Below, piece by piece: positions 1 through 4,075 of a stretch of 4,075 nucleotides of DNA. Within the stretch, counting starts at the first letter, position 1; each line of letters opens with the position of its first letter. The notes below the pieces were generated by a model. It saw only the letters and a list, made by a program, of their open reading frames with translations. It made no database searches and was not told the DNA's origin. A program made the translations under genes and the position numbers. Location of the stretch: the IMG/VR virus record IMGVR_UViG_2778261316_000010; one strand, written 5' to 3'. The stretch comes from a virus. Taxonomy: Duplodnaviria; Heunggongvirae; Uroviricota; Caudoviricetes.

Positions 1-45
1 ATAAAACCGGGTGATGCAAAAGTAGCCATTTGATTCACAAGGCCA

Positions 46-74
46 TTGACGCATCGCCCGGTTAGTTTTAACCT
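46..74 (+). promoter_or_regulatory. Candidate sigma70 promoter for thrW
   Basis: TTGACG at 46-51, 17-nt spacer, TAACCT at 69-74, about 40 nt upstream of the tRNA 5' end. The -10 match is weak and no TSS can be confirmed from sequence. Confidence 0.3.
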
Positions 75-114
75 TGTCCACCGTGATTCACGTTCGTGAA
101 CATGTCCTTTCAGG

Positions 115-190
115 GCCGATATAGCTCAGTTGGTAGAGCAGCGCATTCGTAATGCGAAGGTCGTAGGTTCGACTCCTATTATCGGCACCA
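115..190 (+). tRNA. thrW: tRNA-Thr (anticodon CGU)
   Basis: 76-nt sequence GCCGATATAGCTCAGTTGGTAGAGCAGCGCATTCGTAATGCGAAGGTCGTAGGTTCGACTCCTATTATCGGCACCA folds as a cloverleaf: acceptor GCCGATA/TATCGGC, D stem GCTC/GAGC, anticodon stem GCGCA/TGCGA with loop TTCGTAA (anticodon CGT), T stem GTAGG/CCTAT with TTCGACT loop, encoded CCA. It matches enterobacterial thrW as I recall it, the known attachment site of P22-type integrases. Confidence 0.95.
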
Positions 191-204
191 TTAAAATCAA
201 TAAG

Positions 205-1368
205 TTACACATCATTAGTACCTTCCTTATTTTTTGACTGGGACAAATTTGGGACCGATGGGTTCAGGATCGAGTCTATTTGCCGTGCGTGTTCGGTAAG
301 GTGATTAGGTGCGAGGTGAGCATATCGACGAACCATTTCGATAGACTCCCAGCCTCCCATTTCCTGTAACACTGACAACGGGACACCGGCTTGAACCAGC
401 CAACTTGCCCAGGTGTGTCTCAAGTCATGAAATCTGAAATCATCAATACCAGCTCGTCTCAGCGCCGCTTTCCAGGCTGTGTTTGCGTCATACCGCATCT
501 TCCTGACTGTTGGCGCTTTCGTTCCGTCTGGTTTGGTACAGCTTTCCTTGTACACAAATACCCAACGGTGATGATTCCCGATTTGTTTTTTCAATACGCG
601 ACATGCAGTATCATTCAGCGCAACGCCAATTGCGCGGTTTGATTTACTCTCTTCCGGGTTTATCCATGCCACCCGGCGCTGCATATCTATTTGTTGCCAT
701 TCAAGGTTGATGATGTTCGAGCGTCTTAAGCCTGTTGCCAGTGCAAATTCAACAACAGACTTTAATGGCTCCGGACATTCATCAATCAGCCTTTGTGCTT
801 CATGGGGCTCCAGCCAGCGGATCCGTTTATTCTTTGGTTGAGGCACTTTAATAATTGGTGCCTTATCCAGCATTTTCCATTCACGCTCTGCGGCTCTTAG
901 TAGGGCCTTTATAAATGAAAGATGCGTAGCCTTCGTTGCAACGGACGCTGGTTTTGGCGTGTATTCTGGAACAGGTTTCCCTTTTTTTCTGCATGCTTCT
1001 GCCCTGAGTTTCCAGTTTTCCTCATGACGCCGGTTCGTCATTTTCTGCATTGCTGAATAAATTTTTGATTCAGTGATGTCTCTTAGTTGCATCCCTGCGA
1101 AATGTTGAAGCCAGAATCCGATCCGGCTTTTGTCATCGTCCAGTGATTTCTTATGTGCTTTCTCTTCGAGCCACCTGACACACGCTTCCTCAAACGTCAT
1201 ATCAGGTATTTCACCAAGTTTGCTGACCCGCCATGCTTCAGCCTTTAGCTTGTCATGGAGCTCTGTCGCCTGCCTTTTGTCCTTTGTTCCAAGAGACTGT
1301 TTAAATCTTTTACCGTTCGGCAATGTGAAACTGGCGTACCATATTTCACTTCTGCGGAAGAGTGACAT
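205..1368 (-). CDS. int: Phage tyrosine integrase (site-specific recombinase), P22 Int-like
   Basis: 387-aa ORF starting [31 protein letters not shown], with GAGGAAA ribosome-binding site about 7 nt upstream of ATG 1368. C-terminal catalytic domain has the tyrosine-recombinase HxxR box ([10 protein letters not shown]) and the tyrosine nucleophile context (MVRRYAHL). It ends 15 nt from the tRNA 3' end, the classic tRNA-int arrangement. Resemblance to P22 Int is from memory. Confidence 0.95.
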
Positions 1369-1595
1369 TTTCTTTCCTCTGTTATGCCATCACCCGCGCT
1401 CACCTTGATAGTATGCAGCGGAGACTGAAGCGCCGCAATGCAGGCTTGTCGCGTTGTGAGGTAAGGAGATTTTGGTTTAGTGGGGTCTTTGCGTGTTGCC
1501 TGTAGGCGGCCTGTTCGTATCCAGTTGGTGGCGGTTGGTCTGGATATCTTAAGAAACTGACAGGCCTCATCGAGTGTGAGGCTGTATGATTCCAT
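1245..1595 (-). CDS. xis: Excisionase (Xis), P22 Xis-like
   Basis: 116-aa product from ATG 1595 ([31 protein letters not shown]...), preceded by GAGGT. It has an N-terminal HTH typical of excisionases and overlaps the int start by about 124 nt, as in lambda and P22. The ORF track's 126-aa version uses an upstream GTG without a convincing ribosome-binding site. Confidence 0.85.
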
Positions 1596-1845
1596 GGTTA
1601 CCTCTGCTTTTTGAACGCATGTCACGTAACTTCTTAATGTGTTCTGCCGTTTCGATCTCTTCTGCTATCCGATCTGCATCAGCTTTATTCACAGGTTCAA
1701 AGTCATGATTAAAGCGGAACATGCTGGCGATACATGTTCTGCCTTTTCGGATGTAGTGAACTTTGTTGTGGGTAGAACGCAGGATTTTGCAGGGAGTGCC
1801 GTGGTGGTCGACGTACCAGGTGTTAGGAAAAATGATTCTGAACAT
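1567..1845 (-). CDS. Hypothetical phage protein (92 aa), exo-xis region
   Basis: ATG at 1845 preceded by GAGGTG. It overlaps the xis start by 29 nt and is co-oriented with the operon. No family recognised from sequence. Confidence 0.65.
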   Translation of the reverse strand: MFRIIFPNTWYVDHHGTPCKILRSTHNKVHYIRKGRTCIASMFRFNHDFEPVNKADADRIAEEIETAEHIKKLRDMRSKSRGNHGIIQPHTR

Positions 1846-1892
1846 TTTTACACCTCAGTTGGACGATGTTGAAATTTGCTGCTTTGAGGCCA

Positions 1893-2111
1893 TCACAATC
1901 CCCATTGTTTGTTCTTAAGTTCGATCTCCTCCTGGCAACTTGCACAAGTCCGACAACCCTGAACGACCAGGCGTCTTCGTTCATCTATCGGATCGCCACA
2001 CTCACAACAATGAGTGGCAGATATAGCCTGGTGGTTCAGGCGGCGCATTTTTATTGCTGTGTTGCGCTGTAATTCTTCAATTTCTGATGCTGAATCAATG
2101 ATGTCTGCCAT
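1893..2111 (-). CDS. TraR/DksA-family C4 zinc-finger protein (lambda Orf73-like RNA-polymerase-binding regulator)
   Basis: 72-aa product with two CxxC pairs in the spacing of the TraR/DksA zinc ribbon (HCCECGDPIDERRRLVVQGCRTCASCQEEIE). Size and position in the leftward early operon match phage TraR homologues. Confidence 0.85.
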   Translation of the reverse strand: MADIIDSASEIEELQRNTAIKMRRLNHQAISATHCCECGDPIDERRRLVVQGCRTCASCQEEIELKNKQWGL

Positions 2112-2160
2112 CTTCCATTAATCCCTGAATTGTTGGTTAATACGCTTGAGGGTGAATGCG

Positions 2161-2189
2161 AATAATAAAAAAGGAGCCTGTAGCTCCCT
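2161..2189 (-). terminator. Probable Rho-independent terminator between orf71 and the TraR-like gene
   Basis: Minus strand reads AGGGAGC-TACAG-GCTCCT followed by TTTTTTATTATT: a GC-rich 5-7 bp stem, 5-nt loop and U-rich tract, 22 nt after the orf71 stop. Position is analogous to lambda tL terminators. Confidence 0.45.
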
Positions 2190-2209
2190 GATGATTTTGC
2201 TTTTCATGT

Positions 2210-2425
2210 TCATCGTTCCTTAAAGACGCCGTTTAACATGCCGATTGCCAGGCTTAAATGAGTCGGTGTGAATCCCATCAGCGTTACCGTTTCGCGGTGC
2301 TTCTTCAGTACGCTACGGCAAATGTCATCGACGTTTTTATCCGGAAACTGCTGTCTGGCTTTTTTGATTTCAGAATTAGCCTGACGGGCAATGCTGCGAA
2401 GGGCGTTTTCCTGCTGAGGTGTCAT
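2210..2425 (-). CDS. Hypothetical phage protein (71 aa)
   Basis: MTPQQENALRSIARQANSEIKKARQQFPDKNVDDICRSVLKKHRETVTLMGFTPTHLSLAIGMLNGVFKER. ATG at 2425 overlaps the TGA of the upstream 27-codon ORF (ATGA), suggesting translational coupling. The ORF track's 104-aa version needs a TTG start inside the methyltransferase gene and is not preferred. Confidence 0.6.
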   Translation of the reverse strand: MTPQQENALRSIARQANSEIKKARQQFPDKNVDDICRSVLKKHRETVTLMGFTPTHLSLAIGMLNGVFKER

Positions 2426-2505
2426 TGAACAAGTCCCATGTCGGCAAGCATAAGCACACAGAATATGAAGCCCGCTGCCAGAAAAATGCATTCCGTGGTT
2501 GTCAT
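2422..2505 (-). CDS. Candidate small hydrophobic peptide (27 aa), not in ORF track
   Basis: ATG at 2505-2503 overlaps the methyltransferase TGA stop (ATGA) and has GGGAGG 4 nt upstream. Product MTTTECIFLAAGFIFCVLMLADMGLVQ has a single hydrophobic helix-length core. Its TGA overlaps the orf71 ATG. Coding status is inferred from this coupling geometry only. Confidence 0.45.
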   Translation of the reverse strand: MTTTECIFLAAGFIFCVLMLADMGLVQ

Positions 2506-3059
2506 GCAGCCTCCCGACGGGCAAGAATCCTTGAGCCGAACGCCATCAACTCTCCACGATCAACGGTCGTAAAGTGGCAGTGTGTACGGGGGTATGGGTG
2601 CCAGATAATGAGCATCGAGCCTTTATTATTTCCACTGACGGGTTTCTCAGTGAGTGGGTTAATAAATGCCAGTCGTCCTGCCGTGATGAATCTGACCTCA
2701 CTGGCGGTTTGTATCGCTTCATGAAACCATCCGACAGATGTGTCAGCAGGCAATAACATTACACATCCCACACTACTGAATTTGTTTTCAGTGGCTGCCT
2801 TTTTCACAAAAGGGGAAATATTGCTGTATGGTGGATTCAACCAGACATAACCAGAGGCATATCCCATTGCTTCAGGCCATGAAGTGGTTAATGTGTTCTG
2901 CTCCTGTGAGATAAAAAGCCGACATAGTCGGTTTTTTTCGCTGGCGGCAGCATCAAGTTGAAAAACGAACTCTGCATTAAGCGCAGCAAAAATCTCTGGT
3001 GGTGTGCGCCAGCTGTCGCGATGTTCGGCAGGAGTATTGCTTCCGGTGAAATCAGTCAT
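2502..3059 (-). CDS. Phage-type DNA N6-adenine methyltransferase (Dam family, orphan)
   Basis: 185-aa product with the N-terminal WRTPPEIF...FVFQLDAAAS block and catalytic motif IV NPPY (GYVWLNPPYSNI), characteristic of the phage Dam N6-adenine methyltransferase family. GGGGG ribosome-binding site 4 nt before ATG 3059. No adjacent restriction endonuclease gene. Confidence 0.88.
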   Translation of the reverse strand: MTDFTGSNTPAEHRDSWRTPPEIFAALNAEFVFQLDAAASEKNRLCRLFISQEQNTLTTSWPEAMGYASGYVWLNPPYSNISPFVKKAATENKFSSVGCVMLLPADTSVGWFHEAIQTASEVRFITAGRLAFINPLTEKPVSGNNKGSMLIIWHPYPRTHCHFTTVDRGELMAFGSRILARREAA

Positions 3060-3213
3060 ACAGCCCCCGTTTATTATTTATCTCCTCAGCCAGCCGCTGT
3101 GCTTTCAGGGGATTTCGGATAACAGAAAGGCCGGGAAATACCCAGCCTCGCTTTGTAACGGAGTAGACGAAAGTGATCGTGCCTACCCGGATATTATCGT
3201 GAGGATGCTTCAT
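3052..3213 (-). CDS. Small phage protein (53 aa), lambda orf60a-like by position; not in ORF track
   Basis: ATG at 3213-3211 overlaps the exo TGA stop (ATGA) with GGGGAG 8 nt upstream. Product [53 protein letters not shown]. Its stop overlaps the methyltransferase start. In lambda the gene after exo (orf60a) overlaps the exo stop the same way; similarity is by position, not verified. Confidence 0.55.
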
Positions 3214-3488
3214 CGCCATTGCTCCCCAAATGCAAAACCAATTTCAGCTAGTGCCTCGTCCATTTTTTCGATGAACTCCGGCACCATCTCGTCAAAACTC
3301 GCCATGTACTTTTCATCCCGCTCAACCACGACATAATGCAGGCCTTCACGCTTCATACGCGGGTCATAGTTGGCAAAGTACCAGGCATCTTTTCGCGTCA
3401 CCCACATGCTGTACTGCACCTGGGCCATGTAAGCCGACTTTATGGCCTCGAAACCACCGAGCCGGAACTTCATGAAATCCCGGGAGGT
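3210..3488 (-). pseudogene. exo: Truncated exo (lambda Red-alpha exonuclease), C-terminal ~90 codons only
   Basis: Translation ...[92 protein letters not shown] is near-identical to the C-terminus of lambda Exo as I recall it. Upstream the frame has no start codon back to a stop at 3585-3587, similarity is lost, and the first ATG (3473) is preceded by CCTCCC rather than a Shine-Dalgarno. The N-terminal ~135 codons are absent. Confidence 0.85.
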
Positions 3489-3878
3489 ACTGTAATCGAC
3501 AGCTGGTCCAGTATGGTGTTTTTGAAGTTCAACGGGGCGAAATTTTCTGCCTCTGATTACCCTGTGCTGGCGAAAGTGTTTCCTTCACTGGTATTACCTG
3601 AAGCCCGCGGTGATTTCATTCGTATCTGGGATGACGGGCGAGGTGCCGATGGTGGTCGCGAATTATTAAGCTGGCAGGAAGCTACAAACTTTTCTCAGTT
3701 TGCCGGGAATATAGGCGGAGGTGCGGGACACACAATTAACTTTCATGATGGCATCGCCGGAAATCAGCCAGGATTTTCACGATTTAATTTCACCAGTAAC
3801 TCTGTGGGTGATGGTGTGAATTTTGTTGCTGTCAGACCGCGAAATATTGCATTTAACTTTCTTGTGAGGGCTAAATAA
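3489..3878 (+). pseudogene. C-terminal fragment of a phage side tail-fibre gene
   Basis: Plus-strand translation ...[55 protein letters not shown]... carries the tail-fibre collar signature (CNGA..S...YP.L ... LPD.RGRFIR.WD.G.G.D.GR...S.Q.DA). Only about 120-130 C-terminal codons are present and there is no credible start or ribosome-binding site; the ORF-track start at 3336 lies antisense to exo. Left boundary is approximate. Confidence 0.7.
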
Positions 3879-4000: not shown

Positions 4001-4023
4001 GGTAATGACTCCAACTTATTGAT
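4001..4023. repeat. IS1 terminal inverted repeat (IRR)
   Basis: GGTAATGACTCCAACTTATTGAT, the canonical IS1 right inverted repeat as I recall it. The 9 bp before it (3992-4000, ACTGGCGTA) would be the target-site duplication if repeated at the other IS1 end. Confidence 0.85.
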
Positions 4024-4075
4024 AGTGTTTTATGTTCAGATAATGCCCGATGACTTTGTCATGCAGCTCCACCGA
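4016..4075 (-). CDS. insB: IS1 transposase InsB, C-terminal end (partial)
   Basis: Minus-strand translation of 4075-4019 gives SVELHDKVIGHYLNIKHYQ then TAA, the known C-terminus of IS1 InsB. The rest of the gene is outside the window. Confidence 0.85.
   Translation of the reverse strand, partial: SVELHDKVIGHYLNIKHYQ

Follow-up and report, generated by a model that had tools for sequence, protein, structure and literature searches.

The thrW locus analyzed here raises the question of whether a prophage that has lost most of its genes, while keeping int and xis, can still leave the chromosome or has become fixed there. The window, by which we mean the whole stretch of 4,075 nucleotides under study, comes from an E. 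coli chromosome and opens directly behind the proA stop codon; its features are listed in Table 1. We consider it fairly probable that it forms the left-hand 4 kb of a lambdoid temperate phage, SfI/SfV/e14-like, that has been reduced by deletion to 9.4 kb and resides in thrW. For the element as a whole, the explanation that we favor, with moderate confidence, is a deletion remnant that would be excisable by its own Int and Xis. The nearest genome, NZ_CM194533.1 (assembly GCF_061073875.1), matches all 4,075 bases of the window except one T at 3598-3600 and was treated as the same lineage, though not as the same sequence.

Table 1. Features of the window, with coordinates, strand and the basis of each assignment.
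Feature	Coordinates	Strand	Basis and remarks
thrW, tRNA-Thr(CGU), complete	115-190	+	ARAGORN, sole tRNA called (CGT anticodon)
attL core	145-200	+	145-190, published 46-bp core; perfect identity to attR up to 200 (56 bp)
P' arm of attL	201-330	+	overlaps int 3' end; four-way alignment of the remnant, SfI, ST69 prophage and P22
int, 387-aa heterobivalent tyrosine integrase, P22/SfI type	205-1368	-	Pfam and alignment; frame intact
xis, 116-aa HTH_17 excisionase (recombination directionality factor)	1245-1595	-	Pfam and alignment
DUF4222 gene	1567-1845	-	Pfam; PGAP of the nearest genome; also in SfI
TraR/DksA-type zinc finger gene	1893-2111	-	Pfam; PGAP of the nearest genome; also in SfI
Terminator-like hairpin and T run	2171-2189	-	upstream of the traR-DUF4222-xis-int block; consensus scan only
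Hypothetical gene	2210-2425	-	
Phage Dam N6-adenine methyltransferase	2502-3059	-	
DUF1317	3052-3219	-	
exo 3' fragment, lambda-type	3210-3488	-	PGAP 'exonuclease, missing N-terminus'; left edge of the large internal deletion
Deletion junction, exo'/tail-fibre fragment	3488/3489	.	about 30 kb removed (bet to Q, lysis, head and tail genes), as estimated from the gene content of an intact relative
Tail-fibre gene 3' fragment	3489-3878	+	
tfa, first 41 codons	3878-4000	+	
IS1 end (768-bp IS1 inserted in tfa)	4001-4075	-	9-bp target duplication ACTGGCGTA; simple insertion

Attachment sites and the extent of the insertion

The earlier note on this DNA had proposed that the tRNA gene is reconstituted, and the gene found is indeed intact and identical to thrW of O157 Sakai. 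Its 5' part is bacterial, and homology to phages begins at position 145, from which point the sequence is common to phage attP. For SfI, attP, attB, attL and attR have been determined by PCR and sequencing, and the 46-bp core ATTCGTAATGCGAAGGTCGTAGGTTCGACTCCTATTATCGGCACCA is common to SfII, SfV, SfX and P22 (PMC3636060). This core matches the window exactly at 145-190, spanning thrW from the anticodon loop to the 3' end. It starts at tRNA position 31, the base preceding the anticodon loop (146-152), and strand exchange probably takes place within that loop. An attL core overlapping the 3' end of thrW had been suspected at approximately 150-204; the overlap holds, but the coordinates have to be shifted to 145-190, with identity between attL and attR continuing to 200.

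A search for a downstream direct repeat of the thrW 3' segment had been recommended as a check, and it revealed a perfect 56-bp copy 9,392 bp downstream of the attL copy in NZ_CM194533.1, in which the thrW 3' part recurs once. Given that this position lies outside the window, attR was read from that genome, which differs from the window by the one T mentioned above. In the genome carrying the window itself, the layout GCGGATTCTTATG-ATTCGTAATGCGAAGGTCGTAGGTTCGACTCCTATTATCGGCACCATTAAAATCAA-ATTGTTACGTAAG would be expected approximately 9.39 kb downstream of position 145. The inner flank of the repeat in NZ_CM194533.1 corresponds to the P arm of SfI and its outer flank to the sequence downstream of thrW in K-12. 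The P arm occupies about 125 bp on the left side of the attR core and matches both SfI attP and attR of the ST69 prophage almost base for base; with the latter, homology runs approximately 100 bp further to the left. Homology within the P arm starts at the motif TGGGACAAAA, where that with P22 starts as well, and the alignments suggest that functional attP has its left boundary at this motif. The terminal part of the phi458 record was considered as a source of the P arm and dropped, because on that side the record has not been cut at attP.

That the downstream repeat is not attR at all, and instead reflects chance or an attachment scar of the CP4-6-like island, appears extremely improbable to us. 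The repeat does directly adjoin that island, but it starts exactly at the start of the phage core, is preceded by the P arm nearly identical to that of SfI, and had no second match in any of 100 shuffles. Moreover, CP4-6 of K-12 adjoins a complete thrW, and in-silico removal of the 9.4 kb restores precisely this arrangement: when window positions 1-200 were fused to what follows the second repeat on its right, the resulting 450-bp string matched the thrW/CP4-6 junction of K-12 MG1655 at 99.8%. The P-arm flank, the four-way alignment and this junction match led us to reject a chance repeat or CP4-6 scar. The empty-site string of 450 bp is contiguous in 368 genomes. Since in-silico removal recreates the K-12 junction, the 9.4 kb constitute a precise insertion, and the product of its excision is a known natural allele. 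A larger composite excision, including the CP4-6-like and heat-resistance islands, was likewise rejected, as no third copy of the core was present within approximately 70 kb downstream.

Both arms carry repeats of the TGGGAC type that are conserved in the remnant, SfI, the ST69 prophage and P22. On the P' arm, TGGGACAAA (239-247) and TGGGACCGA (250-258), both conserved in P22, are candidate arm-type Int sites, and on the P arm TGGGAC or TGAGAC motifs occur at L001 positions 29412, 29423 and 29477. Together, the arms hold four exact TGGGAC copies and one TGAGAC variant, all pointing the same way (background rate, 0.29 per kb), and to judge from this conservation the repeats are likely to be arm-type Int sites. 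The base immediately left of the attR core is a G here versus an A in SfI, ST69, Sakai Sp1 and P22, and probably lies within the C core-type Int site, a point that speaks against excisability. We considered this G as a disabling mutation and found no support for it: the same 34-mer is a natural variant in seven IMG/VR prophage contigs, six of which carry the same right-end cargo.

Int, Xis and the proposed excision

The earlier note had further claimed that the frames, ribosome-binding sites and catalytic motifs of Int and Xis are intact, and each of these was found. Int gave a full-length match to the Pfam Phage_integrase family (PF00589, residues 1-171 of 172, E 5e-48), is identical to SfI Int at 386 of 387 positions (the sole difference being R96 here and K in SfI) and shares 90% identity with P22 Int. 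Its residues R215, K242, H314, R317, W340 and Y349 align with the catalytic R212, K235, H308, R311, H333 and Y342 of lambda integrase, and the HxxR...Y segment aligns as well with HP1 integrase, whose structure is solved. An N-terminal arm-binding domain appears to be present, as the alignment with SfI and P22 Int runs collinearly from the first residue onward. The catalytic set and this domain would together make Int a heterobivalent tyrosine recombinase of the lambda/P22 kind. PGAP places the start of int at 1323, which results in a protein of 372 aa that is 15 codons shorter. The start at 1368 is the better call, because collinearity with SfI and P22 Int begins at that ATG and a Shine-Dalgarno sequence precedes it at 1373-1381 (AGAGGAAAGAAA-ATG, by direct reading).

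Xis is identical to its SfI counterpart at 115 of 116 positions (S3 here, T in SfI) and to P22 Xis at 103 of 116 (89%), and its gene has a Shine-Dalgarno sequence at 1601-1606 (AGAGGTAACC-ATG, likewise read directly). The overlap of 124 nt between xis and int looks odd, yet it is the native arrangement and the same in SfI and P22. Both proteins have the same accessions as those in the full-length prophage of strain ST69. At the DNA level, positions 145-1700 are 99.0% identical to phi458, 98.9% to SfI, 97-98% to SfII, SfIV and SfV, and 81% to P22. The near identity with the inducible phages SfI and phi458 bears out the view that the module is intact.

With int and xis intact, attL carrying its P' arm and attR carrying its P arm, all cis- and trans-acting parts for excision are present, and we regard it as highly probable that the remnant is structurally complete for this reaction. 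In the proposed course of events, a phage would have integrated by P22-type site-specific recombination into the part of thrW from the anticodon loop to the 3' end, exchanging this part for an identical phage copy and leaving the tRNA intact at attL, while the displaced bacterial copy would have become attR, directly before the CP4-6-like island. One internal deletion from exo to the tail fibre and one IS1 insertion would subsequently have removed the genes for immunity, replication, lysis, packaging and the virion, sparing both arms, int and xis. During excision, Int would bind and bridge the arm-type sites (the TGGGAC repeats) and the core sites, Xis would bind and bend the P arm, and both proteins, with IHF and Fis of the host, would synapse attL with attR and exchange strands within the core. 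Two products are predicted: a thrW/CP4-6 junction of exactly the K-12 form, and a circle of 9.4 kb whose junction should read P arm, core and TAAGTTACACATC.

The element had also been suggested to excise or be mobilized together with its cargo if a matching attR survived. The attR repeat does exist, but autonomous transfer is unlikely, as the functions for replication and cos/packaging and the structural genes are deleted. Because the circle lacks an origin, an O/P gene, cos, terminase, and capsid and tail genes, excision would result in loss rather than transfer, and the cell would be cured unless the circle re-integrates. The cargo is unlikely to be mobilized unless another phage recombines with the element or transduces it.

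Expression and precedents for excision

Lambdoid phages transcribe xis and int from pL under antitermination by N, and the pL/N/cI region is deleted in the remnant. A crude consensus scan, which a weak promoter may escape, detected no sigma-70-like promoter along the whole minus strand of the window, and a search for CII/C1 boxes found no TTGC-N6-TTGC box of the CII type near xis. Four terminator-like hairpins were predicted on the minus strand upstream of xis by consensus scan, the nearest of which would stop read-through when N is absent. The DUF4222 and TraR/DksA-type genes are probably co-transcribed with xis. The transposase gene of IS1 reads in the same direction as exo'-xis-int, and because it is directed toward the operon, weak read-through into xis-int from IS1 is possible.

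These data bear on the view that the remnant is fixed and silent, its parts being intact only since the deletion is recent, with xis and int not usefully transcribed and further decay to be expected. We regard this as possible, though rather doubtful. The missing promoter-like site and CII box and the terminator-like hairpins speak for it, and so does the apparent youth of the element: the exo'/tail-fibre junction occurs in one of 5,426 complete E. coli genomes (NZ_CM194533.1 only), rendering the deletion lineage-specific, and a module approximately 99% identical to those of active phages would have had no time to decay. In addition, no circular products were obtained from Sakai Sp1 or any of the six SpLE elements (PMC2669165). 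However, the failure of Sp1 is accounted for by its truncated int; the consensus scan was crude, so that a weak promoter is still possible, and IS1 transcription is directed at exo'-xis-int. Moreover, KplE1, a 10.2-kb remnant, was excised in vivo by its own Int and recombination directionality factor (PMC2951348), and the highly degraded Sakai prophage Sp7 circularizes spontaneously (PMC2669165), although both lack a repressor or pL. In K-12, spontaneous excision has been reported for seven of nine cryptic prophages (Wang et al. 2010, as cited in PMC9701743).

KplE1 (CPS-53), inserted in argW of K-12, is the best functional precedent for the remnant: it measures approximately 10 kb, has no repressor, and keeps int, the gene for its directionality factor, attL and attR (PMC2951348). 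It differs in its integrase branch (IntS/TorI), its tRNA target, its 16-bp core and the orientation of int. The int promoter of KplE1 overlaps attL and is autoregulated, while the convergent thrW-int arrangement is reported not to be autoregulated in the case of intH (PMC2951348). Returning to the excisable remnant that we favor, xis and int would have to be expressed, which we presume, and the chances that excision proceeds at a detectable rate without help appear evenly balanced to us.

Relatives, cargo and significance

The closest relatives of the module are found in SfI and in SfII, SfIV, SfV and SfX, which carry attP-int-xis for thrW. SfI shares with the remnant the identical 46-bp core, P and P' arms that are about 97-99% identical, the DUF4222 and DksA-like genes upstream of xis and the insertion site beside proA. 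It differs in being a complete inducible myovirus, compared with 9.4 kb for the remnant, and in having gtrABC adjoining attP, whereas the P arm of the remnant adjoins an IS3 fragment and an AraC-family gene in the place of gtrA. Phi458 is a spontaneously inducing coliphage. P22 has an integrase of the same family, the same architecture and the identical 46-bp core, and the arm motifs TGGGACAAAA, TGGGACGTGTGAGCGCAG and TGGGACA-ATTTGGGAC are conserved, but the rest of this podovirus is unrelated.

The remainder of the prophage is gutted, as had been stated before: exo breaks off at 3488/3489, where it meets the 3' part of the tail-fibre gene, homology to intact prophages ends at 3489, and IS1 lies in tfa. 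The element at the window end is IS1 and not IS5. Between attL and attR, Pfam and PGAP assignments list int, xis, the DUF4222 gene, the TraR-like gene, the hypothetical gene, Dam, DUF1317, exo', the tail-fibre and tfa fragments, IS1, pin, a GIY-YIG protein, an AraC-family gene and a partial IS3. No primase or replication gene, terminase or capsid gene is present in this list, and a reading as a PICI or satellite was rejected, as the listed genes are devoid of replication and packaging functions.

The tail-fibre and tfa fragments are 97% identical to their counterparts in Sp1 of O157 Sakai (CP-933H of EDL933), a 10.6-kb remnant at the same thrW site with the same 46-bp core repeats. Sp1 shares with the remnant the 3'-terminal 930 nt of int (98.7%), the P arm (98%) and, at 94-97% identity, the right end, which comprises the tail fibre, tfa, an inverted tfa/fibre segment, pinE, the GIY-YIG protein, the AraC-family regulator and a partial IS3. 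In contrast to the remnant, in which int and xis are complete, it keeps cI-cro-cII-O'-P' and lacks xis and the first approximately 82 codons of int. As judged by these alignments, the remnant is a sibling of Sp1/CP-933H, and the differing end points of the deletions argue that the two have decayed independently.

The AraC-family protein is identical at 244 of 247 positions to ECs_0287, the sole AraC-like gene in Sp1. According to published work (PMC3681947; also PMC10057817), CP-933H carries the gene for PatE, which activates hdeAB and further acid-resistance operons, and because of this report and of ECs_0287 being the only AraC-like gene in Sp1, the cargo of the remnant is probably the patE acid-resistance regulator. 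It could be lost through precise excision. This lineage and O157 Sp1/CP-933H have in common a pin-invertible tail-fibre segment, the GIY-YIG protein and the PatE-type activator, while the lytic core was deleted independently in each. One might hypothesize that the remnant is kept by selection and that int, xis and the att sites turn the right-end cargo into a switch that can be reversed or lost, part of the population losing patE by excision, a scenario that we consider quite unlikely.

We find it very unlikely that the remnant acts mainly in trans within the prophage pool, providing att landing sites, DNA for recombination, and Int and Xis for co-resident elements that share the core. SfI-like phages would then integrate in tandem, and the 3.3 kb of early-left DNA and the tail-fibre DNA would recombine with superinfecting relatives. 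There is precedent in Sakai, where Sp10 used attR of Rac for tandem integration and the prophage pool gave rise to Sp5/Sp15 recombinants (PMC2669165). Window positions 1-3489 are at least 99% identical to many full-length prophages, and thrW is occupied in tandem both here (the remnant and the CP4-6-like island) and in Sakai (Sp1 and Sp2). However, the sequence shows no sign of such a role, the missing third core copy within 70 kb speaks against it, and it would be compatible with both a silent and an excisable remnant rather than an alternative to them.

The integrase family, the tRNA target, the core and arms, the order of xis and int, the tandem occupancy of thrW and the existence of small excision-competent remnants are all already known. 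Cryptic Shigella serotype-converting prophages are known similar remnants. New in the present analysis are the exact boundaries, the int start corrected to yield 387 rather than 372 aa, and the lineage-specific deletion. As module, target and similar remnants had already been described, the practical value is modest and no new biological question is opened. The locus illustrates that a nearly empty prophage can retain a complete cut-and-paste apparatus, with thrW still open to SfI/P22-type phages and the DNA of the remnant to recombination with them. For annotation, the boundaries of the element are attL at 145-200 and attR approximately 9.39 kb downstream.

Sp1 and the right end of the remnant

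Sp1 of O157 Sakai, known as CP-933H in EDL933, is a sibling of the remnant at thrW that decayed independently. The first ~82 codons of its int are missing, and so is xis. Asadulghani et al. 2009 (PMC2669165) did not detect an Sp1 circle and scored Sp1 Int and Xis as present; the missing circle would be explained by the loss of the ~82 int codons together with the loss of xis. The right end of Sp1 carries the same block, from tfa to the partial IS3, as the remnant does in its nearest genome, NZ_CM194533.1 (L001). The AraC-family regulator within this block is identical to Sakai ECs_0287 at 244 of 247 positions; it is probably PatE, the acid-resistance activator of CP-933H.

Coordinates of the remnant's right part, its sibling and neighbouring features (L001, nearest genome; L015, O157 Sakai; L005, strain ST69)
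Feature	Location	Position relative to the window	Contents or remark
IS1, 768 bp	L001 24002-24769	4001-4075	inserted in tfa
Remainder of remnant	L001 24764-29298	about 4.8-9.3 kb from window start	rest of tfa; inverted tfa/gp53-like fibre segment with pinE invertase; LEM-3-like GIY-YIG protein; AraC-family regulator; partial IS3
Heat-resistance island, LHR/tLST type	L001 38076-44076; L014 38970-49901	17-30 kb downstream	clpK, hsp20-GI, yfdX1/2, hdeD-GI, trx-GI, kefB-GI, psiE-GI, htpX, degP-like
Sp1	L015 10043-20628
Tail-fibre ORF, 180 aa		3336-3878
Base left of attR core	L001 29536
attR core, ST69 prophage	L005 10492-10528

IS1 and the downstream heat-resistance island

The IS1 copy is flanked by a 9-bp target duplication, ACTGGCGTA, and so entered tfa by simple insertion; it did not cause the large deletion. 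The identical transposase (WP_250112393.1) is encoded by a further IS1 ~30 kb downstream, adjoining the heat-resistance island. This island lies within or next to the CP4-6-like island, with fragments of IS1 and IS5 on its flanks, and the isolate carrying it came from a reusable food-transport container.

The int start and the tail-fibre fragment

PGAP annotates int as a protein of 372 aa (WP_224628705.1), starting 15 codons into the ORF (window 1323-1368). The annotations of SfI and P22, conservation from residue 1 and the ribosome-binding site support the form of 387 aa, and the shorter call may have been propagated through many RefSeq genomes. The window and NZ_CM194533.1 differ solely by one T within the tail-fibre fragment, at 3598-3600 (CCTG versus CCTTG). 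PGAP describes this gene as frameshifted in the reference; in the window it forms a continuous ORF. The discrepancy may stem from sequencing or from a homopolymer, the two assemblies being of one lineage.

Variants at the att cores

The attR core of the full-length ST69 prophage has two mismatches to thrW, both in the T-arm part: GTAGG is replaced by GGAGG, and CTATT by CTCTT. This suggests either that another thrW allele was the source of the prophage or of the bacterial DNA flanking it, or that there has been divergence at the site. The base immediately left of the attR core, a position that probably falls within the C core-type Int site, is G in the nearest genome and A in SfI, ST69, Sakai Sp1 and P22. 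This G was found in seven IMG/VR prophage contigs, six of them with the patE-type right end, and may be characteristic of one sublineage among the thrW prophages.
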